Positions 45,297-62,876 of a stretch of DNA of 64,000 nt are shown piece by piece. Made by a program: the position numbers and the translations under genes. Position 1 is the first letter of the stretch. Each line of letters starts with the position of its first letter. Where the stretch lies: positions 81,288-145,287 of the forward strand of contig JABGXP010000014.1 in assembly GCA_018675685.1 (NCBI GenBank), read 5' to 3'. Source of the DNA: a bacterium. Its GTDB lineage: Bacteria; Patescibacteriota; Minisyncoccia; Moranbacterales; DUUL01. The notes under the pieces were generated by a model. The model was not told the origin of the DNA and did not search any database. It saw only the letters and a list, made by a program, of their open reading frames with translations.

Positions 45297-45447
45297 TATA
45301 TTGTTTTTGCGTTTGAGGTTTGAGACGAAAAGGATGAGCATGCTTTTTGTCTGAAGTCTTAAAAGAGGCTTATTTAATTATTTTCTTATTTTCTTTTGGT
45401 GTGTTTGTAAAACCGACGTTAAATAAATATCCCCGTCGATCAAGTAA

Positions 45448-45720
<273 letters not shown>

Positions 45721-45831
45721 ATATTGTTTACTTTAGACTTCTTTCTGCTGAGCAGACAGCTAGCAGAAGAGGTCCTCTAGTGAATATTATTTAGAAGTTA
45801 TTAATTTAAACAGACTAAAAGATCGAAAATT

Positions 45832-46332: not shown

Positions 46333-46344
46333 TCAAAAGAACAC

Positions 46345-46752
46345 ATGAATATTTCAAACAATCAATATGCCGAACTTGCCAAATTCATTCTTGATGAATC
46401 GAAAGACAAGAAAGCAGCCAAGGAAGGTGTTGTTAAATTAGCAAAACTAATCGTTGAAAATCGTGATCAAGGTGGATTTGAGAGGATTGTAAAACAGTTT
46501 AACAATTTAATAGAGAAAGAGGCCGGAGTTGTAAATGTGAACATTGTCAGCGCAAAAGAACTATCCAGCAAACAAGAGAAGCTTTTACAGGAGTCTATTG
46601 CAAAGAAATTGGACATCAAAAAAGATTTAATTGAAATTTTCAAGGAAGTTGATGAATCATTAATAGGCGGGATTAGTATTCAGATTGGAGCGAAAGTTAT
46701 AGATGGAAGTTTGAGGGCTAAAATAGAGAAATTGGAAAATTCACTACTATAA
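46345..46752 (+). CDS. atpH: F0F1 ATP synthase subunit delta (short form, 135 aa)
   Basis: Operon position. The C-terminal LIGGISIQIGAKVIDGSLRAKIEKL matches the delta/OSCP C-terminal motif. Confidence 0.65.
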   Translation: MNISNNQYAELAKFILDESKDKKAAKEGVVKLAKLIVENRDQGGFERIVKQFNNLIEKEAGVVNVNIVSAKELSSKQEKLLQESIAKKLDIKKDLIEIFKEVDESLIGGISIQIGAKVIDGSLRAKIEKLENSLL

Positions 46753-46785
46753 ACTATAAACTAACTTATAAATATCCTAAAAGAT

Positions 46786-48369
46786 ATGAACAAAGATTAT
46801 ATAATTGACGAACTTAAGAAACAAATTGCGAATGTTGATACCTCTTCAGAACTGAAAAGTGTCGGGAAAGTATTAGAAGTTGGAGACGGAGTGGCAAAAG
46901 TCGCTGGTCTTGATGATCTGATGATGTCTGAGATGGTTAAATTCGACACAGAAGATGGAGAAAACCTATTCGGTGTTGCATTGAACCTTGAAGATGGAAG
47001 AATTGGTGTAATCATCATTGGAGAAGTTTCGAGGGTAAGAGAGGGAATGAAGGTTTCTGCGACTGGTAAAATTCTTTCAATCCCGGTTTCTGATGAAATG
47101 ATTGGACGAGTTGTTGATCCAATCGGAACGATTATTGATGATGGTGATCAAATCAAAAAAGGGGAGTATTATCCAATCGAAAAAATTGCACCTGGTGTGA
47201 TGACTCGAGCTGGCGTTAGCCAACCTTTGCAAACCGGAATCAAATCAATTGATTCAATGATTCCAATTGGACGAGGACAAAGAGAATTGATTATTGGGGA
47301 TCGACAAACTGGAAAAACCGCAATTGCAATTGATACAATTATCAATCAAAAAGGTGAAGATGTGATTTGTATCTATGTTGCGATTGGACAAAAGAAATCA
47401 AAAATTGCTCAAATTGTTGAAAAGTTGAAAGAAAATGACGCAATGGAGCATACAATTATTGTTGTTGCTGGTTCTTCTGATCCTGCTGCATTTTCATTCA
47501 TTTCTCCATATTCTGGATGCGCAATTGGTGAATATTTCATGGAACAAGGAAAAGATGTACTAATTGTGTTTGATGATCTTTCTAAGCATGCTTGGGCATA
47601 TCGACAACTTTCATTACTTCTAAAGAGACCGCCAGGGCGAGAAGCATATCCTGGAGATGTTTTCTATTTACATTCAAGGCTTCTAGAGAGAAGTGCTAAA
47701 TTGAACAAAGAGAATGGCGGTGCTTCAATGACTGCTTTGCCAATCATTGAAACTCAAGCTGGAGATATTTCGGCATTTATTCCTACAAATGTGATTTCAA
47801 TTACAGATGGTCAAATTTTCTTGGAGTCAGATTTGTTTTATCAAGGAATTCGGCCAGCTATTAATGTCGGTCTTTCAGTTTCACGTGTAGGCTCTGCTGC
47901 TCAAACAAAAGCGATGAAAAAAGTTGCTGGTAAGATCAAGCTGGAATTAGCACAATTTCGAGAATTGGAAGCTTTCACAAAATTTGGTTCAGAATTGGAT
48001 GATCGAACAAAGCAAAAGATTGATCGAGGATACCGAACAATTGAAATTCTAAAACAAGCTCAATATGCTTCAATGCTAATGGAGGATCAAGTTGCAATCA
48101 TGTGGGCTTTGACAAAGGGATATATCGATGAAGTGGAAGTGGAAAAAGTAAAGGAGTGGGAAGCAAAGTTCAGTGAATATATGCAAAAAACTGGCAAAGA
48201 CGCTTTGAGGGCAATTAAAGAGGAAAAGAATATTTCTGAAGAACTCGAAGAGAAGCTAGTTAGCTTAACTGAGGATTTCAATAGTACCTGGAAGGAAGAG
48301 AATGAAGAGGAACAAGAAAAAGAAGAAAAGGAGGAGAAGAAAGAGGTACAGATGAAAAAGGCCGAGTAA
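46786..48369 (+). CDS. atpA: F0F1 ATP synthase subunit alpha with a ~25-aa E/K-rich C-terminal extension
   Basis: GDRQTGKTAIAIDTIINQ P-loop. The C-terminus ends EENEEEQEKEEKEEKKEVQMKKAE. Confidence 0.95.
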   Translation: MNKDYIIDELKKQIANVDTSSELKSVGKVLEVGDGVAKVAGLDDLMMSEMVKFDTEDGENLFGVALNLEDGRIGVIIIGEVSRVREGMKVSATGKILSIPVSDEMIGRVVDPIGTIIDDGDQIKKGEYYPIEKIAPGVMTRAGVSQPLQTGIKSIDSMIPIGRGQRELIIGDRQTGKTAIAIDTIINQKGEDVICIYVAIGQKKSKIAQIVEKLKENDAMEHTIIVVAGSSDPAAFSFISPYSGCAIGEYFMEQGKDVLIVFDDLSKHAWAYRQLSLLLKRPPGREAYPGDVFYLHSRLLERSAKLNKENGGASMTALPIIETQAGDISAFIPTNVISITDGQIFLESDLFYQGIRPAINVGLSVSRVGSAAQTKAMKKVAGKIKLELAQFRELEAFTKFGSELDDRTKQKIDRGYRTIEILKQAQYASMLMEDQVAIMWALTKGYIDEVEVEKVKEWEAKFSEYMQKTGKDALRAIKEEKNISEELEEKLVSLTEDFNSTWKEENEEEQEKEEKEEKKEVQMKKAE

Positions 48370-48402
48370 TAATAAAAGAATAATTTAATTTCCAGCAATA
48401 AT

Positions 48403-49368
48403 ATGGCAGGTAATTCAAAGGAAATACAACGAAGAATAAAGTCTATTGGAAATACTCGAAAAATTACTCGGGCTATGGAGATGGTTTCAGCATCCAAGAT
48501 GAAAAAAGAGATTAATCGGGTGTTGCAAGTCAGGGAATATGCACGAGCTTCTTGGGGTGTTTTGACAAACCTTTCGAAGGCTTTTGATCGACTGGAGCAC
48601 GGTCTCTTGGAGGTGCGTGAAGTTAAACGAGTTTTGATAGTGCTAATCACTTCAAACAGAGGTTTATGCGGAGCATATAATGCTCAAATAATTAAAAAAC
48701 TTTCCCAGCAAGTGAAAAATCCGAAATTGTTGAAAATTAACAGAATCGGGAATGAGAAAATTGGTTCAACGATAAAAGATGAAGATTTGGAGTTTGATTA
48801 TATTGCTGTTGGAAAAAAAGGTTTTAATTATCTTGCAAGGCGAGACAAGGATGTAGTTGCAAGTTTTGAAGATTTCAATTATTCGCCTTCAGTTGAGGCA
48901 GTCAGGTCACTGGCTAGAATTGTGATTGATGACTATGTAAGTGGAAAATATGATAAAGTTGTGGTTGCGTATACTGATTTTAAGAATACAGCCGTTCAAG
49001 TGCCAAAACTGAGACAGCTTTTGCCAATTTCAAAGATTGATATCGAAAAGCAAATCGAAGAAATGAACAGAGAAGATGATGTTAAAGATCTAAAAGAGAA
49101 AGAAGAGATTATTGATTACAAGATTGAACCAAAGCCGATCAAAGTTCTTCAGCAACTTTTGCCAAGGTTAGTGGAGGTGCAACTGTACCATGCAGTGCTT
49201 GAATCAAACGCTTCAAAAGAATCAGCAAGAATGTTGGCAATGAAGAATGCCTCTGATGCGGCAGCTGATATGATAACAGAATTGCAATATTCATATAATC
49301 AGATTCGTCAGACAGGAATTACGCAAGAGATTGCGGAAATTACTTCTGGTCGAGCTGCATTGGAATAA
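48403..49368 (+). CDS. atpG: F0F1 ATP synthase subunit gamma
   Basis: N-terminus IQRRIKSIGNTRKITRAMEMVSASKM and the C-terminal helix ..IRQTGITQEIAEITSG. Confidence 0.9.
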   Translation: MAGNSKEIQRRIKSIGNTRKITRAMEMVSASKMKKEINRVLQVREYARASWGVLTNLSKAFDRLEHGLLEVREVKRVLIVLITSNRGLCGAYNAQIIKKLSQQVKNPKLLKINRIGNEKIGSTIKDEDLEFDYIAVGKKGFNYLARRDKDVVASFEDFNYSPSVEAVRSLARIVIDDYVSGKYDKVVVAYTDFKNTAVQVPKLRQLLPISKIDIEKQIEEMNREDDVKDLKEKEEIIDYKIEPKPIKVLQQLLPRLVEVQLYHAVLESNASKESARMLAMKNASDAAADMITELQYSYNQIRQTGITQEIAEITSGRAALE

Positions 49369-49390
49369 AAAAGGACATAATTAATTTTAG

Positions 49391-50809
<1,419 letters not shown>

Positions 50810-50832
50810 CAAAGGAATTATTAATAGTGTAA

Positions 50833-51285
50833 ATGATGAAAACCATTAAACTTAAAGTTACTACACCAGAGCGAGTTGTTTTGGAGACCCAGGTGGAACA
50901 AATAACACTTTCAACGCAGGTTGGTAAGGTTACAATCTTGCCAAATCATGTGCCGCTCCTCAGCATTATCGTTCCTGGAATAATTGAAACCAAACAAGAG
51001 GGTCAAATAGAGCATATGGCCACCTCAGGAGGTTTTTTGGAGTTTCATGATAATGAGCTCACAATCTTGGCCGACACCGCTGAGAGGGCTGATGAGATTG
51101 ATCTGGAGCGTGCCCAAGAGGCAAGAGAGAAGGCAGCAGAAATGAAAAAAGATCAACAAATGCACATAGATGAAAATCAATATGCAATTGTTGTTTCTGG
51201 AATTGAAAAACAATTAGCAAGAATTAGGGTTGCAAAGAAATACCGACCGAAAGGACTCGGCAATAAAGGAGTGCCAAGAAATTAG
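50833..51285 (+). CDS. atpC: F0F1 ATP synthase subunit epsilon
   Basis: Operon position, with a beta-sandwich N-terminus and a helical C-terminus. Confidence 0.8.
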   Translation: MMKTIKLKVTTPERVVLETQVEQITLSTQVGKVTILPNHVPLLSIIVPGIIETKQEGQIEHMATSGGFLEFHDNELTILADTAERADEIDLERAQEAREKAAEMKKDQQMHIDENQYAIVVSGIEKQLARIRVAKKYRPKGLGNKGVPRN

Positions 51286-51304
51286 CAATATTATGAAATA
51301 GGAA

Positions 51305-51341
51305 AGAGGGTAACCAGGAACTTTGGTCACCCTCTTTTTTG
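51305..51341 (+). terminator. intrinsic terminator of the atp operon
   Basis: AGAGGGTAACC-aggaacttt-GGTCACCCTCT followed by TTTTTT. Confidence 0.55.
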
Positions 51342-51372
51342 AAAATCCTCTTTGCAAGACTTTTTAAAAAGA

Positions 51373-51401
51373 TTAACAAGGGTGGCCTTTCGTGGTATAA
51401 T
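51373..51401 (+). promoter_or_regulatory. orphan consensus-like promoter TTAACA, 17 nt, (TGg)TATAAT with no downstream ORF
   Basis: TTAACA at 51373-51378, 17-nt spacer, extended -10 TGGTATAAT at 51393-51401. Confidence 0.4.
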
Positions 51402-51407
51402 GTTTGC

Positions 51408-51566
51408 GTATGTAATTGAAAATAAATACATACAAAAAAAGAGACGTGTTTGACTCCCGATTTAACGGAGGAAAACACAGAACCATAGATCCCGTTCATT
51501 GGAAGCGGGTTTTATGGTATATGGATATTAAATAGCAAAGAGAGTGTACAGTGCATTCTCTTTTTG
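51408..51566 (+). ncRNA. candidate small RNA (~160 nt) defined by the upstream promoter and a downstream intrinsic terminator; identity unknown
   Basis: No ORF of 60 aa or more lies on the plus strand here. The terminator hairpin GAGAGTG-tacagtg-CATTCTC plus TTTTT sits at 51540-51565. Internal stems such as CCCG-ttcattggaag-CGGG are present. No recognisable tRNA, SRP or tmRNA motifs were found. Confidence 0.25.
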
Positions 51567-51646: not shown

Positions 51647-52606
51647 TCAAGTTGTGCTTTTTCTTCCTAGCATTTCAAGGAGAGAGGGGAGTGCAAAGTG
51701 AACGACAATTCCAATTCCAATAGCTGAAAGTGGCACCCAGTAGAGCGCGTGACAATTTTCAAGGAGATACCAAGTTGCAACGAGAGCCGTTACTCCTGCA
51801 GTATCAAACTTCCAACCATAATCGCTGAGTTCTACATGTTTCCAGGTATTAGCAATAAGAGCTATTGCCAAAACGATAAGCGCTAGTACCCACGGCAACT
51901 TTTTTGTATTTTCGCAAGTAGTTGATGTCCCCTTAACATCTCCAGCATTTTCTGATCCTGCTCCTTCCTCGGAAATTATTGGTGTGTTTTCGCCGAGAAC
52001 TTCAGCCTCTTCTTCTGGTAAGTTCTCTGTTAGACCAAGCACGCGTCCTTGGTCAGTAAGAATATCTTCCTCGGTTTCATCTTCTGTTGCTACGCGTGAT
52101 TCTATTTCAAATTCAATATCAAATTTTGCTTCTAAGTTTTGATATTCATTACCAGCATCTTCATCGAATTTTATTTTAATGCGATATTCTTTGCCTTTTG
52201 TAGCGCTCAGACGGTCCATGTATAACTCTTCTTCATCTGCCTTTTTCAAGTCATAGCGGTCCCCTGGTCCGCCAATCCGATAACTCCCATTCTCAACCCT
52301 GATAACATATAGTTTCAATTCTTCTGCTAATTTCTTGTCACCCTTAAGGTCAATAGTAAAAAATAAATTAATATCATCTGTTTCGCTGTCATTTTCCACT
52401 CTAATAGTTTTCTTTTCTTGCCAACCAGGCAGGATGTTAGTGAAATCGAAAATAGCACTTTCATTTAAATTTGTTCCCACTGGATATTCAACATCGATTT
52501 TGTCATCTGCCCAAGCAATGTTTGTGAAAAAAACTCCACTAAAAAGCAAGCTTATTGTAAGTAAGAAGAATTTTTTCAGTCCAAATTTTATACCATCTTT
52601 TTTCAT
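51647..52606 (-). CDS. TasA/camelysin-like secreted protein with a C-terminal multi-TM membrane anchor
   Basis: Signal peptide, then a TasA-like domain (ILPGWQEKKTIRVEN; AGNEYQNLEAKFDIEFEIE, paralleling NAGNEYQGDQMTFNIELY in the 55591 gene). An acidic linker and 2-3 hydrophobic helices follow at the C-terminus. Its start overlaps the upstream gene's stop by 4 nt. Confidence 0.45.
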   Translation of the reverse strand: MKKDGIKFGLKKFFLLTISLLFSGVFFTNIAWADDKIDVEYPVGTNLNESAIFDFTNILPGWQEKKTIRVENDSETDDINLFFTIDLKGDKKLAEELKLYVIRVENGSYRIGGPGDRYDLKKADEEELYMDRLSATKGKEYRIKIKFDEDAGNEYQNLEAKFDIEFEIESRVATEDETEEDILTDQGRVLGLTENLPEEEAEVLGENTPIISEEGAGSENAGDVKGTSTTCENTKKLPWVLALIVLAIALIANTWKHVELSDYGWKFDTAGVTALVATWYLLENCHALYWVPLSAIGIGIVVHFALPSLLEMLGRKSTT

Positions 52607-54948
52607 GCCAATATGTTATTGATAATTAACATTACTATTTCTCCCAGATCATTCTCTTCCTCTTTTTTTTCTTCTTCCTTTAACTCTTCTTTTTCTTCTG
52701 ACTCTTCTTCTTTAATCGCTTCTAGTTCTACTTGTTCCTCTTTGGGTTCCTCAGATGTTTCGTTTTCTGCTTCCTCTGCTTTCTCGTCTTTTAATTCAGG
52801 GGTTTCATTGTTAGCTGATTCTTCTTCTACACTTTCCAATTTCTCTTCTTCTGGGGCTACCTCCTCTGCAATTTCTGGTATCGAGTCTTCTTCTTTGGAG
52901 TTTTCATTATTTAAATCAGAATCCTTGTCGTCAGTTTGGTTTTCTTCACTCTCAATAGAAGACTCTTCGCCCGAATCTTCTTCAGGTAGTTCAACTTGCT
53001 CAGTATCGGTTTGCTTTATGTTTTCTTCTTGGGCCTGATCAGTTTCTCCTTTAGAAGTATCCTCCCCTTTAATGGCATCGAGGAAAACTTCATCGCCATC
53101 TTCCTTTTTTTCATCTTCGTCTTCTTCTTGCGATTCCAAAGCAATTTCTGCTAGGATTTCGCGATAAACATCTTTGGGCATTTCATCATCATTTTCATCA
53201 TCTAAAAGACCCAAGTATTCCAAGAAAACTCCCTTGCAAAATGGATGTTCTTCCTCTCTGTCGAAATCTCTTTTGTCGAAACATTCTTCCAGAACTATTG
53301 CTTGATAATAATCTTTTTCATCGCTAGAGAGTTTGTTTTCTTTGCCTAAGCGAGGATTTGGGTCAACAAAAGGACCAACACCATCTGGGATTCGTTGAAA
53401 CGCTTTATTTTCAAAGAAATCGCTTGGCTTTTGATAATCATAGTGATCATTTTCAATTTCAACACTGCCATAACGAGCAATCAGATATAATTCACCGTTG
53501 TTGTTATTATCAAAGAATTCAGCTGGATTAAATTGTCCGTCTGCATACACAACTAGATCATCGCCAGCTGGAACAATGGTCTCACCACTATCTGAAGGGT
53601 TGTCATCATTGTCGCCGTTGGAAGTCGAAATAATAATTTCATCTCCGTCTTTATTGGCAATGATCCAACCAGCCACATCCCAGTCCTTGTCATCATTATT
53701 CCAAAGTTCAATCACTTCACCATTTGGCATTGGCGCTACGTCACTTCCAGATGGATTTGCCACAAACTCATTTAAAACTATTGGCAAGAGGTTTTGTCCA
53801 CCAGGCGTGCCATAGTTATTGATTTCATCTTCCCAAAAGTCAGTATCATTAGCAGCTGGGTGATTTGTCGTGAACCAATTTTTAGCATCCGTGCCATCTC
53901 CTGGGAGAGGCATTCTTTGCATTGAACGATAATCCGAACCATTTTCTCCTGCTGGCCAAGCTGAATCTTTCCAGGCGACGTCAACTGTTGTACCAGCTTT
54001 GTTTGCAAGTAAAAGTCCCTCGCCGTCATTGTGGAGACTCACATTTGATTTATGGGTGATTCCTTTATCAGAGTCTAGATTGCTGGAGAGGCCAATAGCT
54101 GTTTCATTCCATTTTTTTCTCAAGATCAAGAAATATCCATTAGCTTTGATGCTATATCCATGTGGAATTTCTAGGTGTGCCATTGCCCCTGCGCCATGGC
54201 CAAGACCATGAACATTCCAATTTGAAAGGTCAATCTCTTTGTCTGTCATGTTGCGAAGTTCAATCCATTCGTCAGAACTTCCTTCTTCTGATCCCATCCA
54301 CATAATCTCGTTGATAACAACAGCTTGGCTAGCTGACCACTGGTCGGAAGTAACACGGTTACTCGTAGTTTCAATATCAGAAAAGCCATCAGCTCCATGG
54401 GTCGAACCTGTTTGCCAAGCTTCAAATTTAAAATCAAAATCACAAACTTTATCAGCCAGGGAAGGATTGCCATCAGTTAATTTAACGGTAAAGTTCCAAG
54501 TTTCTTTTGAAATATTTTGTGTACTCGAAAAAAGATAGTCAGCTAATTTTTGATAGGTATTTGTTTGATCGTCTTTGATTTCCAATTTTTCACAAAGATC
54601 TAAGTCGCCAGAAAGATTTGTAGTTGAAACTTTGTAATTAAAATCCAGTATCCCGAGTTTTGAAAGCGAAACAGATTTAGAAGTTTCTGTGGAGGGTGAA
54701 ACTTTGGGAGAGAAACTGTCGTCGGAAGGAATGGAAAAGTCTAGAGTGGAAGCGCCCAGAGTGTTATTTGCGCCCTCTTCTTTGTCTGAAAAACTAGCAT
54801 TAGTGCCCCCAGGAAAATTCAGTGAAAAAGAAAAAACTGATATCAAAAGACAAATTCCCACTTTTTTGAGCGAGCTTAGGATTCTTCTTGTGATAACTGA
54901 TTTATATCTCCTTTTCTTCTTTGACATCGTCTTTTTTAGTATTATCAT
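52603..54948 (-). CDS. large secreted protein with a SipW-cognate (TasA-type) signal peptide, a TasA-like N-terminal domain, two lamin-tail domains (LTD), and a ~250-aa acidic tail
   Basis: Signal region ...VFSFSLNFPGGTNASFSDKEEGANNTLGASTLDFS carries the AxFSDxE motif. LTD signatures VVINEIMWMGSEEGSSDEWIELRNMTDKEIDLSNW and VLNEFVANPSGSD..GEVIELWNNDDKDWDVAGW are present. The E/D-rich C-terminus ends in a short hydrophobic LGEIVMLIINNILA. An alternative start MSKKK lies at 54927. Confidence 0.6.
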   Translation of the reverse strand: MIILKKTMSKKKRRYKSVITRRILSSLKKVGICLLISVFSFSLNFPGGTNASFSDKEEGANNTLGASTLDFSIPSDDSFSPKVSPSTETSKSVSLSKLGILDFNYKVSTTNLSGDLDLCEKLEIKDDQTNTYQKLADYLFSSTQNISKETWNFTVKLTDGNPSLADKVCDFDFKFEAWQTGSTHGADGFSDIETTSNRVTSDQWSASQAVVINEIMWMGSEEGSSDEWIELRNMTDKEIDLSNWNVHGLGHGAGAMAHLEIPHGYSIKANGYFLILRKKWNETAIGLSSNLDSDKGITHKSNVSLHNDGEGLLLANKAGTTVDVAWKDSAWPAGENGSDYRSMQRMPLPGDGTDAKNWFTTNHPAANDTDFWEDEINNYGTPGGQNLLPIVLNEFVANPSGSDVAPMPNGEVIELWNNDDKDWDVAGWIIANKDGDEIIISTSNGDNDDNPSDSGETIVPAGDDLVVYADGQFNPAEFFDNNNNGELYLIARYGSVEIENDHYDYQKPSDFFENKAFQRIPDGVGPFVDPNPRLGKENKLSSDEKDYYQAIVLEECFDKRDFDREEEHPFCKGVFLEYLGLLDDENDDEMPKDVYREILAEIALESQEEDEDEKKEDGDEVFLDAIKGEDTSKGETDQAQEENIKQTDTEQVELPEEDSGEESSIESEENQTDDKDSDLNNENSKEEDSIPEIAEEVAPEEEKLESVEEESANNETPELKDEKAEEAENETSEEPKEEQVELEAIKEEESEEKEELKEEEKKEEENDLGEIVMLIINNILA

Positions 54949-55495
54949 TCTCTAATTCATCTGCTTTGCGTTTTTTTGTTCTTCTTCGATAATCAAGTTT
55001 TTTCAATATTTCTTTCTTGATGGTCAAAATTTCATCATAGATAATAATAACTGCGGGAACAATGATGATTAGAACAAAACCAATCGGTTTTTGCGCAGCA
55101 TTCACGGCATATCCTAAAAATGGAACAGAGAAGAGCACTTTTCCAATAACTTCATTTTTTGAGACTTGTTTGTGGTCTTTCGCATTATTAGCATCTCCTT
55201 TAGTGATGTATTTTTCGATATCGTCATTTTTTTCTATGGCTGTGATTCTATGTGTGGTCGGTGTTTTCATTTTGGAGGACTCTCCAAAAGTGATCACATC
55301 ACCAACTTGATAATTTTCAGCTGGTTTTGTGGCTACTATGCTTCCTGTGCGAATTTTTGGTTCCATTGAGCCAGAAAGCACGATAAATGATTTATAACCA
55401 CCTTTTATGGGAATAGCAGACAGAACTAAAAAAACGGCAATAATTGCAATTGCAAGGATAAATAGGTAATAGAAAGTTTTGAAGATTTTTTTCAT
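54902..55495 (-). CDS. sipW: signal peptidase I, archaeal/ER type (SipW-like)
   Basis: N-terminal TM then SGSMEP (catalytic Ser box) ...GDVITF, with a second TM and a basic tail. This is the typical size and architecture of SipW-type SPases. Confidence 0.7.
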   Translation of the reverse strand: MKKIFKTFYYLFILAIAIIAVFLVLSAIPIKGGYKSFIVLSGSMEPKIRTGSIVATKPAENYQVGDVITFGESSKMKTPTTHRITAIEKNDDIEKYITKGDANNAKDHKQVSKNEVIGKVLFSVPFLGYAVNAAQKPIGFVLIIIVPAVIIIYDEILTIKKEILKKLDYRRRTKKRKADELENDNTKKDDVKEEKEI

Positions 55496-55590
55496 TAGAG
55501 GTGTGTTTCTTGGTAGTTGCTTGTTTAAAAACAGGAATAGTTAACTTATTGACTGCCCGAGAGTTCAGGCAGTCTAAAGTCAACTAACTA

Positions 55591-56643
55591 TTAGTAAGAA
55601 CTAACTATTAGTAAGTCAGTATCTTCATACCAAATCAAACCAGTCTCCCAGAGCCATTTGTCCATTTGAGTCCATTGAATAGCTCCATCATTCCATGCAG
55701 TCTTTGGGAGCAACCAAACCTTAACATCTTTCATGTCTTTTCCAAGCTCCATATCTCCGGTGAAATTGATATCACCACTTCCGTTTGATATGCTTTCTCC
55801 TAGGTATGTATCAACATTAGTACCACCATCATATCCAGCAGCTAATACATACGTTGTGTTAGGCAAAGCAACTTTTCCGTCAAATTCAAAATCAAAAGTT
55901 GGATTTTTAACTTCATAGGTTAGTGTGCCTTTGAAATCATCATCTTGAAGCACGTTCCAAGGTCCAGAAGTGTCTTTATTTTCTAGCCAAGCCTCCCCAT
56001 GAAGTTGTTCAGCATAGAGCTCAATGTTGAAAGTCATTTGATCACCTTGATATTCGTTGCCAGCGTTTTCATTCATGTGATAGCTTTGTCTAACTTGCAT
56101 GTAGCCATTAGCAGGAATCATTCCTAAGAACACTTTTTTAGCACCAGCATAGACATCATCAAGAGTTTTACCTTCTGAATCAAGGTAGAGGGTTTGTTCC
56201 CAGATAGGAGTATTACTTGAATCGTATACTTCAACGTATAGATCATAAATAATAACACTAGAGAGATCATTATTGTCAGTTGCACCACCCCAAGAACAAG
56301 CATCATTACTCCAATTACCACCTTGGCCATCACATTCAGGCTCTGATACTACACCTGTTATTTCTACAATTTCGGTGATATCCTTCCAAACATTAACAGG
56401 GTTTGCACTCTCTCCCTCATTTTCAATTTCAAAGTTGATATAATCGATATAATCTGGTTTCATGTCATCCATGGCGAAGCTTTCACTCCAAGGATTCATG
56501 TTATTTACTGAAATATCAATTGTTCCAGCAGTGAAAGTGTTGCCGACTGATTTTTCTTCATCTGAAAAATAGGCTACCGTACCACCGATTGCTACTGCTG
56601 CAACGGCTGTGATAACCATTAAACTTTTTAAAATCTTTTTCAT
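55591..56643 (-). CDS. TasA/camelysin-family secreted protein with a SipW-cognate signal peptide
   Basis: The N-terminus MKKILKSLMVITAVAAVAIGGTVAYFSDEEKSVGNTFTAGTIDIS is the hallmark SipW-cognate class signal (AYFSDxE). A camelysin-like beta-rich body follows. Confidence 0.7.
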   Translation of the reverse strand: MKKILKSLMVITAVAAVAIGGTVAYFSDEEKSVGNTFTAGTIDISVNNMNPWSESFAMDDMKPDYIDYINFEIENEGESANPVNVWKDITEIVEITGVVSEPECDGQGGNWSNDACSWGGATDNNDLSSVIIYDLYVEVYDSSNTPIWEQTLYLDSEGKTLDDVYAGAKKVFLGMIPANGYMQVRQSYHMNENAGNEYQGDQMTFNIELYAEQLHGEAWLENKDTSGPWNVLQDDDFKGTLTYEVKNPTFDFEFDGKVALPNTTYVLAAGYDGGTNVDTYLGESISNGSGDINFTGDMELGKDMKDVKVWLLPKTAWNDGAIQWTQMDKWLWETGLIWYEDTDLLIVSSY

Positions 56644-57035
56644 TTTTTCTTGTTAAATTTTTATACTAAATTTCTCCCTCTAGCAATTTAGTTAGTTTGG
56701 TTTAAGCTCTAATAGTTTAAACCAGAGAACCGTGCACAAATGTTTTTGGGTAGCTTATTCCTTCCTAGTGTTAATATTTAGTGTTTTATCTTAAACTTTG
56801 TTCATTTAACTAGATTTAAGGTAACAAAAAAATCAGAAACTTTTTGCTCCGTTGTTTTTTAGGGTTTTTTGATTTTGTTTTTCTTTCTTTTCAGGAATGC
56901 TCTTTCCATATCTGTTATTTAATCATTTAACAAAAATAATAAACAGACTCTTTCACAAACTAGCAACCAGGACCCCTCTTTTAATAACGAGTATAGCAAG
57001 TCATTTTCAAACGTCAAATGGGATTAAACTTATAA

Positions 57036-57225: not shown

Positions 57226-57741
57226 ATGAAAAATAGAAGAGAAGAAAGAAGATTGTTGAGAGAAGAAGGTCTCCCAATTGAAAGAATGAGAATCATCGAC
57301 ACAGCAGAGACGTTGGATTTGCAAATCAAAGAATTTCTGGGTTGTCATGTATCCGTGAGTGGTTGTGGTTCTTCGAAAGAGCAGACACTGGATCTCTCAT
57401 TGGTGAGAGAGTTTGTCGGAGCAATTCCGGTTGCCAACGTTTTGTTCGAAGCACCTCGCTTTGCATGGACCAATGAGGAAGATGATATTCCTGTCAGGGC
57501 GATTGTTCTGGAAGTTTTGGCTGGTAGCAAAGGAGATGACCTTCTGAATGGCATTTTCGATGATGTTGGCATGATCTTTGAGGATATTCGTTTTTTGAAC
57601 TTTCTCTCAGTTATCCAAGCGACGTTGTCGCCAGTGTTTCCAGTTTGTGAGCTGGAGGTTTTGCTGAAAATGATTAATGATTTCAAAAAAAGTCCGGTGA
57701 TCCAAAAATCAGACATGGGGGATGAAAATATCAATGAATAG
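57226..57741 (+). CDS. hypothetical protein (171 aa), the first gene of a GC-richer island
   Basis: Intact ORF preceded by an AAAGGAGAAAGG Shine-Dalgarno. Its local GC content is visibly higher than that of the flanking genes. Confidence 0.4.
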   Translation: MKNRREERRLLREEGLPIERMRIIDTAETLDLQIKEFLGCHVSVSGCGSSKEQTLDLSLVREFVGAIPVANVLFEAPRFAWTNEEDDIPVRAIVLEVLAGSKGDDLLNGIFDDVGMIFEDIRFLNFLSVIQATLSPVFPVCELEVLLKMINDFKKSPVIQKSDMGDENINE

Positions 57742-57971
57742 CTCCTTTTGTCGAATAGTTCGTTCTATTGAATGTTTGCGAGGTGTCTAGTGGAAAATTC
57801 CGCTGGACACCTTTTTTTGAATAATTTTTGTCGATTTTCATTGACAAAAGTAACAAAATCATGTATGGTTATTGGAATGATCCAAATCTCTTTTGAGTCA
57901 AGGTCATTTGCTAGTTCTTCGTCAATTTGGAATTTTAGAAAAAAACTTTTTAATTTTTTTGGAGGTAAGTC

Positions 57972-58367
57972 TTGAAAGAAGAGCATGGAAGGATAAATGT
58001 TTTAATCGTGGATAGCGAGGAAGATGATGCTATAATTCTCGATATCAGAAAGTTGATCATCAATTTACATCAAAAACAAGGGAGCAAAAAAGAGCTAGCT
58101 ATTAGCTTAATTGATAGCCAAGTGAATCTTTTTGCACATCATTTAGAGTTTGATTTTCAAATTGTTATTCTGTTAAACAACAATGAAAAAAGCGATTTGA
58201 TTTTTCAATATCTAAATGGGTTTTTTTCTGGCAAGGCAAAGTTTATTGTCATTGGCCCTGAAATTGAAACTGCGGCTAAGCACGCGAAGTTTGAAGGTGC
58301 TTGGGTTGTTTCAAACACCTTTAATGAAGTGATCCCACAGTTCGAAACATTGATGGGAGAGAAGTAG
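57972..58367 (+). CDS. stand-alone receiver (CheY-like REC)-like domain protein, probably degenerate
   Basis: INVLIVDSEEDD (acidic pocket) .. LAISLIDS (candidate acceptor-Asp position) .. FIVIGPEIETAAK .. GAWVVSNTF, spaced as beta-alpha units like a receiver domain. Confidence 0.4.
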   Translation: MKEEHGRINVLIVDSEEDDAIILDIRKLIINLHQKQGSKKELAISLIDSQVNLFAHHLEFDFQIVILLNNNEKSDLIFQYLNGFFSGKAKFIVIGPEIETAAKHAKFEGAWVVSNTFNEVIPQFETLMGEK

Positions 58368-58426
58368 TTTAAACGGTCAATCAGCAAAGTAAACTGCAAA
58401 GGTTTACTGAAGATGGGGAGGATGCT

Positions 58427-58603
58427 ATGGACAGATATCTTGACCCAGAAATACGACAAAGGCGCAGAAACAAACTAGTAAGTGGCAAGTGCACTGTTTG
58501 TTCAAATGACGCTGCAATTCCTTGGAAGCAACATCAATATTGTTACGACTGCTGGGTAATTGCAGAGGTTTATTTCATGAAAGAACTGCGGAATGAAAAA
58601 TAA
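58427..58603 (+). CDS. unlisted 58-aa ORF encoding a CxxC..CxxC zinc-ribbon-like peptide (MDRYLDPEIRQRRRNKLVSGKCTVCSNDAAIPWKQHQYCYDCWVIAEVYFMKELRNEK)
   Basis: Translated by hand from ATG 58427 to TAA 58601-58603. It is below the 60-aa cutoff of the track and fills the gap between two island genes. Confidence 0.3.
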   Translation: MDRYLDPEIRQRRRNKLVSGKCTVCSNDAAIPWKQHQYCYDCWVIAEVYFMKELRNEK

Positions 58604-58653
58604 GGAGAGCGAAAGATTAATTTAACCTATCAATCAGCAAAGGTGGTAAGAAG

Positions 58654-59619
58654 ATGGAGAAAAGAAAAAAAGGAGATAAAAAACCAGAGAATGTAAGAAT
58701 CATTTTTGTTTCTGCTGTCTGCGGAAAAGAACCAGAGCTCATGACCAGTTTTCTTGAAGAGTTTGATTCTTTCGCGAAGAAGCAGGACAAAAAAACTTTT
58801 GTCTTGATTTTCTGCGGAAAAGCAAGCGACCCAAGCAAGCTTTTGCGAAAGGCTGACATTCTGGTAACTGATCCCGTGATCACTTGGGGTGGAAGAAAGA
58901 CATTCCTTCCTCAGCTAGGTTCTGCCAACGATGAGCGCGAGAATGGAAAACGCAGAATCATTATCGTTCTTCCAAGAAAGAAGGATGAAAGAAATAAATT
59001 CTTTGCTGACCCCCGGTGTTTTGCAAAGACATTGATGCCAAATGTGGAGCATCCTCGGAAAGTTGAAAAAATCTCGCATATTCCTTTGAATGGCAAGACT
59101 CTGGAAAAAATCGAAGATGAAGTCATTTTCGAACTACCAGAACATTGTTCAGCCCCGAGAGTGATGATCGCACTTTCTAATTCTTTTGAAATGATTGAAG
59201 CGAAAAAACTGAAGGAGACAATTGAGGCACAATTTGCCCTTGAGGTGATGGTGGTTCCTTGGAAAAGCTTCCGAGCTTCAATGGCCGCCGAAGCGGATGT
59301 TTTGATTACTAGCACTGTTCAACAGCTCGATAGACTCCCAACACCTGCAAGAGTTCCCACTAATAGGCACAATGGTAGAAACAACAAGTTTGTCGAATCA
59401 AAAGTTCACACCTATCAAAACTTGGCGCATGTTGACATGTCCAAGAAGGCTAATCCAGCCCTGCAGGTTGTTCTTTTGGGAAGGGAAGTGACAGCGTTCA
59501 TTGTTCGTTATGCGGACATCCTATCCGGCTTCTTAGAGTTTCCGCCAACAAAGGCTTCTTTGTCAGCAGCTTTACAAAGAGCAGCTTTGAAAAGCGAAAA
59601 ATCAGTTCTTATCAATTAG
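58654..59619 (+). CDS. hypothetical protein (321 aa) with two internally similar alpha/beta (receiver/flavodoxin-like) halves
   Basis: Repeat of the pattern R[IV]...S......F.....(V/I)L..........AD(I/V)L(V/I)T(D/S) at residues ~15-73 and ~168-220. An AGGTGG Shine-Dalgarno is present. Confidence 0.4.
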   Translation: MEKRKKGDKKPENVRIIFVSAVCGKEPELMTSFLEEFDSFAKKQDKKTFVLIFCGKASDPSKLLRKADILVTDPVITWGGRKTFLPQLGSANDERENGKRRIIIVLPRKKDERNKFFADPRCFAKTLMPNVEHPRKVEKISHIPLNGKTLEKIEDEVIFELPEHCSAPRVMIALSNSFEMIEAKKLKETIEAQFALEVMVVPWKSFRASMAAEADVLITSTVQQLDRLPTPARVPTNRHNGRNNKFVESKVHTYQNLAHVDMSKKANPALQVVLLGREVTAFIVRYADILSGFLEFPPTKASLSAALQRAALKSEKSVLIN

Positions 59620-59898: not shown

Positions 59899-60507
59899 AT
59901 GGAGCTTAAAGAGTATTTAAAAGTTTTGAAGAAATACAAAACAACCTTTGTTGTCATCTGGGTTGGAGCGATTGCTTTTGGATTGATTGCAGCGTCTCTT
60001 GTTCCACAGAGATACAAAACGACTTTTTCAATTGATATCACAAGAGATACGCAGGAAGAAGGAACTCAGGAATATGACTTTGATCAATTCTATCGTTTAG
60101 AAGCAGACGATCGATTCGGCAGGACAATTGTAGAATGGTTTAGTGATGGTGCAATTGTAAACAACATTCACGCTGTCGCAAGAAGCGTGGAAGAGAATTT
60201 TGAAAATGAAGAACTCGAAACGAAATTTAAAGCAAAAAAGCTCGCAAATAGCTATTTGAGGGTTAGCTTCTTGGTTTCAGAGAAAAAAGAAGTAAAACCA
60301 CTTTTTCTGGGAGTGAAAAAAGTTCTAAATGAGAAAACCAAGGAGTTTAATGGCGGTTTCAATAAACAAAGCAGCTTTAAGCTCATTTTTAATGGACCAA
60401 CTATTGCAAATGCTACAATTCCACTTACCCCACTACTTATCAGTTTGATTGGCAGTGGTTTTTTCTTGGCAGCATTCGGGATTATGTTTAGAAAGTATCT
60501 AGAATAA
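59899..60507 (+). CDS. Wzz/YveK-like polysaccharide chain-length determinant protein (short form)
   Basis: N-terminal ELKEYLKVLKKYKTTFVVIWVGAIAFGLIAASLV (Wzz N-terminal motif plus TM1) and a C-terminal TM (LISLIGSGFFLAAFGIMF). Confidence 0.5.
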   Translation: MELKEYLKVLKKYKTTFVVIWVGAIAFGLIAASLVPQRYKTTFSIDITRDTQEEGTQEYDFDQFYRLEADDRFGRTIVEWFSDGAIVNNIHAVARSVEENFENEELETKFKAKKLANSYLRVSFLVSEKKEVKPLFLGVKKVLNEKTKEFNGGFNKQSSFKLIFNGPTIANATIPLTPLLISLIGSGFFLAAFGIMFRKYLE

Positions 60508-60515
60508 GAATCATT

Positions 60516-61664
60516 ATGAAAATAGGGATTGATATTAGATGTTTAGCAGAAGGGAATCGAACTGGTGTTGAGGAATACACGATTAGCTTTTTGAAGCGTC
60601 TTTTTGAGCAGGATTCGAAGAACGAATACCTGCTTTTTATTAACTCTTTTAAGAAAGTTAAAGAAGACCTTTCCTGGTTAGAGGAGTATCCAAACGTTGA
60701 AATGAGAAACTTTGGTTTTCCTAATAAACTTTTAAACTTTGCAATGTGGTTTTTGCGTTGGCCAAAAATTGACCTTTTGCTTGGAGGAGTTGACCTTTTT
60801 TTTGCACCAAACATTTCTTTCATAGCTCTTTCTGATAAATGTAAGTTCACTCTCACTGTTCACGATCTTTCATTTGAAAGATTCCCCGAACACTTTTCCG
60901 CTAAAAGAAGATTATGGCACTATGTTGTGAATCCAAGATTGCTTTGCAAGAGAGCTGACAAGATCTTAGCTGTATCAAATTCAACAAAAGATGACCTGAC
61001 GATGCTTTATCGAATCAGTGAAAGTAAAATAGAAGTAGCTTATCCTCGTTTGGAGACTAAAAATTTCACAGAACCCAATATTTCTGGAGACAAAACAATG
61101 AGAATGATCAGAGATTATAGCTTGCCTGATGAATTTGTCTTGTATTTAGGAACAATTGAGCCAAGGAAAAACATTATCTCACTTGTAAAAGCATTTGAGC
61201 ATTTGAAAAAAAGCGGCAAAGTATATAAAAACTTAAAACTGGTGATTGCGGGAAGAGTTGGGTGGTCGTATGAAAGAATAATTAAGGCCGTGGAATCAAG
61301 CCCTAATAAAAAAGATATTCTGTTTACTGGCTTTGTGCATGACTCTGATAAAGCTATTTTATATAAATTAGCAAAGGTTTTTGTCTATCCATCTTTCTTT
61401 GAAGGCTTTGGTTTTCCTCCGGTAGAGGCAATGGCAAGTGGTGTTCCTGTGATTACTTCAAATTGTTCTTCTATCCCAGAGGTCGTGCAAGATGCCGCAG
61501 TATTAATTGATCCATATCGGCCAGCTGAAATTTCACTAGCGATCAAACTTCTTTTGGAGGACAAAATATTGTATAATGATTTTATCAAGAAAGGAAGAAT
61601 GCACGTTGAAAAAATTGAAAAGCGATATTTGGAAGAGAATATTCTTTCTTATCTCAAGATATAG
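60516..61664 (+). CDS. family 4 (GT-B) glycosyltransferase
   Basis: EGFGFPPVEAMASGVPVITSNCSSIPEV (EX7E motif region) and the overall GT4 architecture. Confidence 0.85.
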   Translation: MKIGIDIRCLAEGNRTGVEEYTISFLKRLFEQDSKNEYLLFINSFKKVKEDLSWLEEYPNVEMRNFGFPNKLLNFAMWFLRWPKIDLLLGGVDLFFAPNISFIALSDKCKFTLTVHDLSFERFPEHFSAKRRLWHYVVNPRLLCKRADKILAVSNSTKDDLTMLYRISESKIEVAYPRLETKNFTEPNISGDKTMRMIRDYSLPDEFVLYLGTIEPRKNIISLVKAFEHLKKSGKVYKNLKLVIAGRVGWSYERIIKAVESSPNKKDILFTGFVHDSDKAILYKLAKVFVYPSFFEGFGFPPVEAMASGVPVITSNCSSIPEVVQDAAVLIDPYRPAEISLAIKLLLEDKILYNDFIKKGRMHVEKIEKRYLEENILSYLKI

Positions 61665-61739
61665 CAATTGTTTATGGTGATGGCGAGAAAAAACTCAAGC
61701 TTGAAACAAAAGATATAAAAAAGTTAGGAAAAACAAAAG

Positions 61740-62876
61740 ATGAAAAAAATTGGAATCGATGCTCGTTTTTATGGACCAACAGGGAAGGGTCTTGGAAGGT
61801 ATGCGCAGAAACTAGTTGAATACTTGGAAATGGTTGATGGAGGGAATAAGGAACGACAATATGTTGTTTTTTTGAGGAAAGATAATTTTGATCTGTATCA
61901 ACCAAAACATGAGAACTTTACTAAGGTACTGGCTGATTTTAGCTGGTATTCTTTTGCGGAACAATTAGGGTTTCCGCTTTTTTTATATGCTCAGAAGCTT
62001 GATTTGGTGCATTTTTGTCATTTCAATGTGCCACTTTTATATTGTAAGCAATTTGTTGTTACGATTCATGATTTAATCTTATTCCACCACCCGACTGTTA
62101 GGAATACGACTTTGAATAAATATTTCTATTTTTTGAAACTATTTGCATACAGGCTGGCGATCAGAAGGGCAGCAAAAAAGGCAAGGAAGATTATTGCAGT
62201 TTCGGAGTTCACAAGAAGCGATATTGTAGCCAATCTTGGTGTTACTAAAGAGCAAGTTGAAATGACCTATGAAGGCTGTGAATACCAATGTTTTTTGAAC
62301 AGTAAATGCGATGATGATGTTTTAACAAAGTATGGTATAATGAAACCATATCTGCTTTATGTCGGCAATGCTTATCCACACAAGAATCTAGAGAGACTAG
62401 TGGCGGTGTTTAGCAGACTTAGAAATAAAAATGATAAACTCCAATTAGTACTTGTTGGAGGAAAGGATTTTTTCTATGAAAATTTGGAAAAATTTGTTTT
62501 TGATGGGGGGTATGAGGGAATAATTTTCCCTGGCTATGTTCCAGATCGAGAACTTGATGTTTTGTATAAAAGAGCAGAACTCTATGTCTTTCCTTCTCTT
62601 TATGAAGGGTTCGGCTTACCACCACTAGAAGCTCTAGCTAAGAGCACAATGGTAGTCTCATCTTGCAGGACTTCTATGCCAGAAATTTTGCAAGACGCTG
62701 TTAGTTATTTTGACCCAGAAGATCTCGATTCAATGGAAAAATCAATTTTATTTGCCTTAGAAAACAAGCCCCCAAAAAAGGAGCTTCCCAAAAAAGCAAT
62801 TAAGGTTTTGGCAAAATTTTCTTGGAGAAAGATGGCGGAAGAGACATTAGATATATATAAAAAAGTTTTAAGGTAG
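61740..62876 (+). CDS. family 4 (GT-B) glycosyltransferase
   Basis: EGFGLPPLEALAKSTMVVSSCRTSMPEI and the overall GT4 architecture. Confidence 0.85.
   Translation: MKKIGIDARFYGPTGKGLGRYAQKLVEYLEMVDGGNKERQYVVFLRKDNFDLYQPKHENFTKVLADFSWYSFAEQLGFPLFLYAQKLDLVHFCHFNVPLLYCKQFVVTIHDLILFHHPTVRNTTLNKYFYFLKLFAYRLAIRRAAKKARKIIAVSEFTRSDIVANLGVTKEQVEMTYEGCEYQCFLNSKCDDDVLTKYGIMKPYLLYVGNAYPHKNLERLVAVFSRLRNKNDKLQLVLVGGKDFFYENLEKFVFDGGYEGIIFPGYVPDRELDVLYKRAELYVFPSLYEGFGLPPLEALAKSTMVVSSCRTSMPEILQDAVSYFDPEDLDSMEKSILFALENKPPKKELPKKAIKVLAKFSWRKMAEETLDIYKKVLR

Follow-up and report, generated by a model that had tools for sequence, protein, structure and literature searches.

A locus of four genes (g1 to g4) in an ultrasmall, Moranbacteria-like CPR bacterium appears, with odds slightly better than even (about 0.55 by our estimate from the sequences), to encode a TasA-type extracellular fibre built by donor-strand exchange, with g3 at its tip, g1 as its shaft and g4 as its anchoring terminator. 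The genes are co-directional on the minus strand, as confirmed by an ORF check of the whole 64-kb window, by which we mean the entire stretch of DNA that was analysed (Table 1). They follow one another closely, at the coordinates and with the overlaps and short gaps that the sequence-only reading had described: g1 and g2 are 95 nt apart, while g3 overlaps with g2 and, by 4 nt, with g4. What tells most about the locus is probably that g4 and its whole family lack the signal-plus-donor motif.

Table 1. Features of the four-gene locus and its flanks (window positions; protein residues where applicable)
Feature	Residues	Position	Strand	Remark
Locus g1-g2-g3-g4		51647-56643	-	
Promoter-like site upstream of g1		56990-57017	-	TTGACG, 16-nt spacer, TG-TATACT
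g1		55591-56643	-	350 aa
g1 signal peptide	1-24	56572-56643	-	predicted cleavage between GGTVA and YFSD
g1 donor-strand-like segment	25-35	56539-56571	-	YFSDEEKSVGN
g1 TasA-like jelly-roll	36-214	56002-56538	-	
g1 extra C-terminal beta-sandwich	215-350	55594-56001	-	
g2		54902-55495	-	197 aa
g3		52603-54948	-	781 aa as called; 774 aa from the probable start M8 at 54927
g3 signal	1-51	54796-54948	-	predicted cleavage between GGTNA and SFSD
g3 donor-strand-like segment	52-62	54763-54795	-	SFSDKEEGANN
g3 compact TasA-related domain	~63-200	54349-54762	-	conserved Cys pair C119/C169
g3 LTD1	205-324	53977-54336	-	
g3 LTD2	~385-520	53389-53796	-	boundaries estimated from internal repeat
g3 acidic tail	~596-770	52639-53163	-	
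g4		51647-52606	-	319 aa
g4 A-x-A signal (predicted)	1-33	52508-52606	-	cleavage between IAWA and DDKIDVEY
g4 compact TasA-related beta-domain	34-172	52091-52507	-	
g4 linker	173-232	51911-52090	-	conserved EILxxQGR, then acidic/Gly stretch
g4 three TM helices	~233-312	51671-51910	-	
Terminator-like hairpin downstream of g4		51477-51495	-	weak; consensus scan, pattern match
Terminator-like hairpin downstream of g4		51303-51337	-	14-bp stem; consensus scan, pattern match

By its profile matches, g1 is a member of the TasA/Peptidase_M73 family with a SipW-type signal, as had been proposed. It scores 55.4 bits against PF12389 (Peptidase_M73; gathering score 22.5, E 9e-15) and 34.3 bits against TIGR04088, the cognate_SipW profile (cut-off 19), and its homologues are already annotated with PF12389. 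The donor-strand segment is the best-conserved part of the family; behind it lie a jelly-roll of TasA-like fold and an additional sandwich that is SOD-like. Sequence searches of the PDB with g1, with the g1-family profile and with the g4-family profile returned chance matches only, and TasA was recovered by fold comparison alone; for g1 the Foldseek match to 5of1 is weak (E 0.012).

The second gene was likewise correctly identified: g2 is, judging by its motifs and profile scores, an archaeal/ER-type signal peptidase I with intact catalytic residues. It matches TIGR02228 with 124.8 bits (cut-off 51.85), and the catalytic candidates Ser43 (SGSMEP), His82 (tHR) and Asp101 (KGDaN) are kept. In an alignment with human SEC11A/C (7p2p, 7p2q; E 7e-9) these three residues coincide with the SGSMEP, HR and GDNN motifs of the human proteins, and g2 has TM segments at both termini. 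With 126.7 bits against NF046067, the Bacillus SipW equivalog, it stays under the cut-off of 190; g2 thus reads as SipW-like, yet not as an orthologue of Bacillus SipW. It is the sole SPase-like ORF in the window, where no bacterial-type LepB occurs.

The signal of g3 scores 14.3 bits against TIGR04088, below the cut-off of 19. We nevertheless count it as SipW-type because hhalign relates g3 to the g1 family with a probability of 97.7% (E 1.7e-12), over the signal, the donor strand and the first strands only. The compact domain that follows resembles the g4 domain (hhalign probability 96%, E 3.7e-9); the Pfam scan gave no direct PF12389 match in g3. Relatives of this domain were missed by a word-indexed homology search with residues 1-210, and an exhaustive HMMER search with residues 70-205 recovered 485 of them. 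Among 61 sampled proteins with the g3 N-domain, 48 have an LTD and 14 match PF12389 itself (best E 2.5e-10). The g3 N-domain and g4 are best described as divergent, compact TasA relatives.

The remainder of g3 consists of cargo. Its LTD match (PF00932) reaches 83.3 bits over two stretches, against a gathering score of 34.3. The sequence-only reading of a SipW-type signal, a TasA-like domain and two LTDs is supported; the acidic tail, given there as ~250 aa, measures about 186 aa, with 78 D/E against 17 K/R and a net charge of about -60. A short hydrophobic C-terminus (IVMLIINNILA) was considered as a membrane anchor and rejected, as it is not conserved among homologues. Pfam and NCBIfam scans found no TapA-family match in g3 or g4, and g3 matched LTD only. 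The likeness of g3 to TapA, which lies in the donor-like N-terminus, the Ig-like domains and the acidic tail, is architectural and not homologous. By analogy, the TapA-like logic is also followed by the minimal g3 homologue of a Levybacteria locus (L017), which at 229 aa comprises a signal, a donor strand and an LTD. The cargo on the tip-type protein varies between LTD, Laminin_G_3, F5/8-C and fn3-like domains, which suggests a modular adhesin platform.

In TasA, residues 28-38 form the donor strand, and their deletion leads to defective fibre formation (PMC9674648). Sequence comparison places an equivalent segment directly after the SipW-cognate signal in g1 and g3. A donor-motif HMM scored at least 10 bits in all 23 g1-like proteins and in 13 of 18 and 56 of 61 g3-like proteins. 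None of the g4-like proteins (0/23 and 0/31) reached this score, the maximum in all 54 being 6.5 bits.

The proposal that g4 is a TasA-like protein ending in a multi-helix anchor is supported by hhalign, Foldseek and AF2; its inclusion among the SipW-type substrates fails, both on its A-x-A signal and on the absence of the motif from all 54 relatives. No Pfam or NCBIfam model matches g4, TIGR04088 included. About 35 homologues were found, and all named ones are from Moranbacteria. The TasA-like nature of g4 rests on hhalign and Foldseek. The hhalign match to the g1 family is modest (E 5.4e-5, probability 67%), and the alignment begins at TAGTIDISV, the strand after the donor segment. Among PDB structures, Foldseek ranks the TasA fibre 8aur first (E 1.4e-5, with a TM-score of only 0.39) and then, as further donor-strand pilins, CfaB, CanA, CS17 and AbpA (7ueg); the TM-scores are low (0.29-0.39). 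The AF2 model has a beta-domain with pLDDT 84-91 and high-confidence helices at residues 236-260, 265-282 and 290-312. Two Cys are conserved in the family, and C-terminal TM segments are present in most g4-like proteins, with none detected in some (L017, L025, L010). The beta-domains of g1, g3 and g4 are all TasA-related, and g4 combines such a domain, without a donor strand, with an ordinary A-x-A signal and three predicted TM helices.

The conservation check that had been suggested for the cassette returned 17 independent complete loci with the order g1-g2-g3-g4 among unrelated flanking genes. They span Moranbacteria, Levybacteria, Saccharibacteria, WWE3 and unclassified CPR, and the same arrangement was found whether a locus was reached from the g4, the g1 or the g3 side. 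Wherever flanking sequence exists, the g3-g4 pair is accompanied by g1-type genes, often in two or three copies; on the truncated contigs L008, L012 and L014 the adjacency of g3 and g4 is retained. The family matches of g1 to g4 are far above chance level, and the cassette stays linked across CPR lineages.

We propose the following model of the fibre, in which polymerisation, polarity and the contact between g1 and g4 are drawn from homology. Sec export and signal cleavage of the subunits would come first. TapA has a TasA-like N-terminus, its Ig fold is complete and its C-terminus acidic, and it is possible only at the filament start (PMC10151520). The TapA segment 44-57 accelerates polymerisation. 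Similarly, the first strand would pass from g3 to a g1 subunit, leaving g3 at the distal tip with its two lamin-tail (Ig-like) domains and polyacidic tail exposed as an adhesive or cation-binding head. Because g3 in this window carries a TasA-like acceptor domain of its own, it might also sit elsewhere in the fibre. The g1 subunits would form a head-to-tail shaft, each N-terminal strand entering the next subunit, and the extra C-terminal sandwich would decorate the fibre surface. As a protein able to accept a strand and unable to donate one, g4 would receive, at the end nearest the cell, the one donor strand still free. This capping would stop growth, and the TM helices together with the ~60-aa linker would tie the fibre to the cytoplasmic membrane. 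Assembly would involve no chaperone or usher. The fibre likely serves an episymbiotic cell for attachment or for forming a matrix.

The same genes can be read as a two-part anchored adhesin, in which the donor strand of g3 sits in the g4 domain, so that the LTDs and the acidic tail are displayed at the surface of the cell, and g1 forms separate, unanchored matrix fibres or takes part occasionally. The 4-nt overlap suggests translational coupling of g3 and g4, their beta-domains are closer to each other (E 3.7e-9) than either is to that of g1 (5.4e-5 for g4), and the two remain neighbours even on truncated contigs. We nonetheless consider this reading unlikely: g1-type genes are always found beside the pair where flanks exist, and the donor strand of g3 is like that of g1, just as that of TapA is like that of TasA. 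Contacts of g4 with g3 and with g1 could also both occur.

It is more doubtful still that g4 is an assembly factor, that is, a membrane chaperone or platform that binds subunits transiently and catalyses strand exchange in the manner of a minimal usher or of CapP from Bacillus cereus. The sipW-tasA-capP(bc1280)-calY heteropilus of that species resembles the cassette in being multi-component and SipW-processed, with more than one TasA paralogue and with a wall- or membrane-associated accessory factor that sets growth start and stop; CapP controls the polymerisation of CalY and TasA (bioRxiv 10.1101/2024.02.27.582368). Embedded in the membrane by three helices that are predicted with confidence, and with two conserved Cys, g4 would suit such a role, and the Pyrobaculum ABP operon also encodes multi-TM proteins to which no role is assigned (PMC9245690). 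The ectodomain of g4, however, itself has a TasA-related fold like that of a subunit. In its description CapP is a chaperone composed of an N-domain and C-terminal repeats, not a TasA fold with TM helices; the family scans detected no homology between it and g4, and g4, with no Pfam match, has no similarity to TapA or to chaperone/usher families either. TasA and CanA fibres assemble by themselves, with no catalyst (PMC9674648, PMC9245690). The B. cereus system also differs from the cassette in having no LTD protein.

That there is no fibre at all seems improbable. Under this reading g2 would be a general signal peptidase, like the ER/archaeal-type enzymes of archaea, and g1, g3 and g4 would be monomeric secreted or surface beta-sandwich proteins (adhesins, S-layer-like or wall-associated). 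The window encodes no bacterial-type LepB, and monomeric TasA is stable (PMC9674648). Such proteins would, however, leave unexplained a donor-strand segment that exceeds every other part of the g1 family in conservation, occurs in exactly two of the three classes and is systematically absent from the third; the co-migration of four genes across deep CPR lineages and the nearest structural matches, which are fibre-forming donor-strand proteins, also speak against it. The Pfam name of PF12389 (Peptidase_M73, 'Camelysin metallo-endopeptidase'; MEROPS M73) would make g1 a camelysin-like metalloprotease and the locus a secreted-protease system, a reading we reject as very improbable, since g1 has few His and lacks HExxH and any other zincin motif, and those members of the family with a characterised structure are fibre subunits.

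For the fibre reading, the closest precedent is the Bacillus subtilis tapA-sipW-tasA operon (8aur, 5of1; PMC9674648, PMC10151520), where a SipW-type peptidase is likewise encoded with its substrates. The parallel to this operon, with different accessory parts, was anticipated and holds, with TasA-related domains in g1, g3 and g4. B. subtilis TasA and g1 both belong to PF12389 and have an N-terminal donor strand directly after a SipW-type cleavage site; TapA and g3 share a mature N-terminus that mimics the donor strand, followed by one or more Ig-like domains and a negative C-terminus. In contrast to the Bacillus operon, the host here is a CPR bacterium and the gene order is subunit, peptidase, accessory protein, anchor. 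The g1 protein has an additional SOD-like beta-sandwich that B. subtilis TasA lacks. No domain homology of g3 to TapA emerged from the Pfam and NCBIfam scans: g3 has a compact TasA-related domain, two LTDs and a much longer acidic tail. For g4, a donor-less TasA-related domain fused to three TM helices, there is no Bacillus counterpart.

A second precedent is AbpA/AbpB of Pyrobaculum calidifontis (7ueg; PMC9245690), in which, as here, a donor-strand pilin homologous to TasA is paired with a TapA-like partner, the latter a proposed filament starter with distal adhesin-like beta-domains. This operon also encodes several signal-peptide-bearing multi-TM proteins, which are not reported to have a pilin-like domain (PMC9245690). 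In contrast to the cassette, it has no dedicated peptidase and no LTDs.

The three-part logic is shared, as a functional analogy only, by chaperone-usher pili (FimH/PapG at the tip, PapH as terminator) and sortase pili (tip, shaft and basal pilin); CfaB and CS17 pilins occur among the structural matches of g4. In chaperone-usher pili, asymmetric end subunits that lack a donor strand or an exchangeable groove set polarity and termination. The cassette differs in having no chaperone, usher or outer membrane, and its polarity would be opposite, with a donor strand on the initiator and none on the terminator. Unlike in sortase pili, the linkage would be non-covalent.

TasA homologues in Patescibacteria are already known. 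The earlier statement that a TasA system had not been described for CPR-like lineages has to be withdrawn: Wang et al. 2022 list Patescibacteria among the phyla with PF12389 (PMC9245690), and relatives already bear the name 'TasA family protein' at NCBI. The conserved four-gene cassette and the anchored donor-less subunit are apparently new; no description of either was found in the literature on TasA, SipW, camelysin or lamin-tail proteins in CPR, where Wang et al. 2022 was the only paper retrieved. Tentatively, the cassette might represent a class of donor-strand-exchange pilus, so far undescribed, that CPR bacteria anchor in the cell and build with neither chaperone nor usher, with a TapA-like LTD/polyacidic tip, a TasA shaft and a donor-strand-deleted TM terminator. 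If true, the tip, shaft and terminator logic of chaperone-usher pili would have a monoderm counterpart of reversed polarity, possibly a means by which episymbionts attach to hosts.

The start, stop and cell attachment of TasA-type fibres are unsettled even in Bacillus, where TapA is published as the starter and its anchoring role is unresolved. The cassette holds an apparent natural answer in the form of a subunit-like, accept-only protein built into the membrane, and the question of polarity and termination thereby becomes directly testable. In addition to type IV pili, the cassette indicates a second appendage that is widespread on the surface of CPR bacteria. Attaching to host cells lies at the heart of the CPR way of life, and the cassette ranges from Moranbacteria to Saccharibacteria, WWE3 and Levybacteria.

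The immediate surroundings of the cassette offer candidate boundaries of a transcription unit. The promoter-like site upstream of g1 has 10 of 12 consensus matches and an extended -10 TG in a consensus scan, CPR promoters as such not being validated; both terminator-like hairpins (51303-51495) sit in the convergent gap between g4 and atpC. The GC content of the window is uniform. No tRNA genes or Rfam elements were found in the 64 kb, so nothing suggests that the cassette lies in a mobile island. Sortase genes adjoin the cassette in two of the related loci (L021 and L025).

The neighbouring Wzz-like/GT4 cluster had been taken for a partner in a joint surface layer. We rejected it as a part of the module, as the flanks differ in every related locus. 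Three unannotated plus-strand ORFs lie between it and the cassette. The putative Wzz ORF (59899-60507) scores 24.0 bits against PF02706, under the gathering score of 25.5 and over its N-terminal 53 residues only; the two neighbouring GT4 glycosyltransferases are clear, at 132.9 and 100.6 bits.

The sequence-only reading had described four minus-strand genes, and all four ORFs were found at exactly its coordinates. A gap of 95 nt separates the gene of the TasA-family subunit (g1) from that of the SipW-type signal peptidase (g2), which overlaps g3, the gene of a protein with a SipW-type signal, a TasA-related domain, two lamin-tail domains (LTDs) and an acidic tail. The latter in turn overlaps by 4 nt with g4, which encodes a TasA-related protein with C-terminal transmembrane (TM) helices. 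The mechanical g3 ORF, with the N-terminus MIILKKTM..., begins at 54948. Judging by the public gene call of 774 aa and by homologues beginning MKKKRYKS..., the real start is probably M8 (position 54927), which would reduce the g2/g3 overlap to 26 nt. The scaffold is metagenomic and 242 kb long (ENA ERZ23491529, HAWL17-1 scaffold_13; locus tag HOB25_00460). Since all named g4 relatives come from Candidatus Moranbacteria, the earlier label "CPR-like" is correct.

Features of the cassette and its surroundings (window positions)
Feature	Position	Strand	Description
F1Fo ATP synthase operon	~44460-51285	plus	c, b, delta, alpha, gamma, beta, epsilon (precomputed Pfam); converges on g4 end
Hairpin in g4/ATP synthase gap	51303-51337		strong, bidirectional-looking
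Terminator-like hairpins	convergent gap g4/atpC, including 51303-51337		pattern match only
g4	51647-52606	minus	319 aa
Conserved g4 linker/helix region	51671-52090		residues 173-312
g3	52603-54948	minus	781 aa (mechanical ORF)
g2	54902-55495	minus	197 aa
g1	55591-56643	minus	350 aa
Promoter-like site	upstream of g1		pattern match only
Three ORFs between cassette and glycosyltransferase cluster	57226-59619	plus	171, 131, 321 aa; no Pfam match at E <= 0.1
Polysaccharide-type cluster	59899-62876		Wzz-like ORF, two clear GT4 glycosyltransferases

The peptidase scores above the cut-off of TIGR02228 (124.8 bits; cut-off 51.85) and below that of the Bacillus SipW equivalog (126.7 bits; cut-off 190). 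Aligned to human SEC11A/C, it conserves Ser43 (SGSMEP), His82 and Asp101, and thus the Ser/His pair on which its earlier assignment as SipW depended. It is the only SPase-like ORF in the 64-kb window.

BLASTP similarity to g1 is limited to the signal and first strands in g3, and to the C-terminal 'AGNEYQ' strands in g4, for which Pfam and NCBIfam scans return no family match. Profile comparisons match the g3 N-terminus to the g1 family (probability 97.7%, E 1.7e-12), g3 residues 66-177 to the entire g4 beta-domain (96%, E 3.7e-9) and g4 residues 33-169 to the g1 family (67%, E 5.4e-5). In the predicted g4 model the beta-domain (residues 37-172) is confident, and three helices lie within 236-312; the best PDB match of the model is the TasA fibre 8aur (E 1.4e-5), followed by the donor-strand-complemented pilins CfaB, CanA/CanX cannulae, CS17 and AbpA. 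Searching exhaustively with residues 70-205 of g3 recovered 485 cluster representatives, in which the domain nearly always directly follows the N-terminal signal of proteins of 200-1,200 aa. Among 61 sampled relatives, 48 carry LTDs, 14 have their own PF12389 match, and a few contain Laminin_G_3, F5/8-C or fn3-like domains. By these profile comparisons, the match of the model and the family survey, g3 and g4 are predicted to have the TasA fold in common, in a compact and divergent version, in line with the TasA-likeness initially proposed for both. In the g3 class this domain is an N-terminal module carrying variable cargo. In g3 itself the cargo consists of two LTDs (83.3 bits) and a tail of ~186 aa (78 D/E, 17 K/R), whose acidity is kept among homologues while its sequence is not. 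An 'EILxxQGR' motif in the linker is strongly conserved across the g4 family (alignment A2 of the family), two cysteines are nearly invariant (C231 immediately ahead of TM1, C285 in the stretch from TM2 to TM3), and the helices have conserved Trp residues; residues 173-312 yielded no family matches.

In mature B. subtilis TasA, residues 28-38 (AFNDIKSKDAT) form the donor strand entering the next subunit, and their deletion makes fibre formation defective (PMC9674648). TapA has a near-identical N-terminal AFHDI; its Ig fold is already complete and its C-terminus is acidic, and for these reasons it is restricted to the filament start (PMC10151520). Cleavage predicted by alignment leaves such a segment on both g1 (...GGTVA\YFSDEEKSVGN-TFTAGTIDIS) and g3 (...GGTNA\SFSDKEEGANN-TLGASTLDFS). 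The predicted g4 site is a plain A-x-A (...IAWA\DDKIDVEY), and the mature end aligns with 'AGTIDISV', directly past the donor segment. A mini-HMM of the signal-plus-donor segment, built from the g1 family and scored on every protein collected, reached at least 10 bits in 23/23 g1-like proteins, 13/18 g3-like proteins from the loci and 56/61 of the g3-domain sample, and in none of the 23 g4-like proteins from the loci (maximum 6.5 bits) or the 31 of the g4 family. In the 64-kb window the motif occurs in g1 and g3 only. Hence, of the three SipW-type substrates first proposed, g1 and g3 stand but g4 does not. Most g4-like proteins have one to five C-terminal hydrophobic segments; some have no detectable C-terminal TM segments.

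Cassette-bearing loci were reached from g4 (on three metagenomic contigs and in 16 GTDB species representatives), from g1 (L021 of WWE3, L022, L024) and from the g3 domain (L025, L026). All those with enough flank keep a constant order: one to three TasA-family subunits, peptidase, donor-strand/cargo protein, donor-less g4-like protein. This gives 17 complete cassettes that are independent of one another; their hosts are Moranbacteria, Levybacteria, Saccharibacteria, WWE3 and unclassified CPR. At 229 aa, the g3 homologue of Levybacteria is pared down to a signal, a donor strand and a single LTD.

We assign a probability of about 0.7 to a TasA-type fibre system based on donor strands, in which the accessory protein is TapA-like and a paralogue lacking the donor strand is membrane-bound. 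After Sec export, g2 would cleave g1 and g3; g3 would supply a g1 subunit with the first strand and form the distal tip, exposing the LTDs and polyacidic tail; g1 subunits chained by donor-strand exchange would form the shaft; and g4, able to accept but not to donate, would receive the last strand left free at the cell-proximal end, which would both end the fibre and fix it to the membrane. This exact order of tip, shaft and anchor is tentative, at somewhat less than even odds. Against a tip-only role, g3 in the window also has an acceptor-type domain. Direct contact in a g3-g4 complex is equally simple. Alternatively, g4 may serve as a platform for assembly and not as the terminal subunit. 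The Wzz-like and GT4 genes are rejected as components, being mere neighbours, because the genes flanking the cassette differ across all loci.

The fibre mechanism proposed here matches the published TasA/TapA polarity. Its tip/shaft/base architecture resembles chaperone-usher or sortase pili, but without chaperone, usher or covalent linkage. The closest known system is tapA-sipW-tasA, as the sequence-only reading had recognized; further relatives are B. cereus sipW-tasA-capP-calY and the archaeal AbpA/AbpB operon. The claim of that reading that nothing of this kind was described for CPR is too strong, since Wang et al. 2022 (PMC9245690) had noted that Patescibacteria have PF12389 homologues, and relatives are already named 'TasA family protein' or 'SipW-dependent-type signal peptide-containing protein' at NCBI. 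Across the literature that could be searched, the principal CPR genetics and perspective papers among it, neither the conserved four-gene cassette nor the LTD/acidic-tail initiator class nor the TM-anchored donor-less subunit was found described.

The polysaccharide-type cluster, whose Wzz-like ORF is sub-threshold (24 bits; cut-off 25.5) and whose GT4 genes are followed just beyond the window by a 1,206-aa DUF4012 protein (L001 128-3748), is not conserved beside the cassette in other genomes; the suggested combined protein-and-polysaccharide surface layer thus loses its link. Within a few genes of the cassette, four loci (L002, L003, L022, L025) encode secreted CAP-domain proteins (PF00188), and in two (L021 13831-14475, L025 3572-4186) a sortase gene (PF04203) adjoins it; the cassette may be functionally tied to wall anchoring or belong to a wider neighbourhood of surface-protein genes. 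In L003 (4517-5728), an AAA_14/DUF4143 ATPase gene separates the M73 gene from that of the peptidase, and in L021 (4202-5464) one is found immediately upstream of the cassette; this is perhaps a mobile or defence-type gene that has landed nearby more than once. Five loci from ENA MAGs titled 'uncultured Bdellovibrionales bacterium' (L008, L010, L011, L012, L013) carry a Moranbacteria-type cassette with 36-55% identity to g4; as they look like CPR genomes, the titles are probably taxonomic mislabels.
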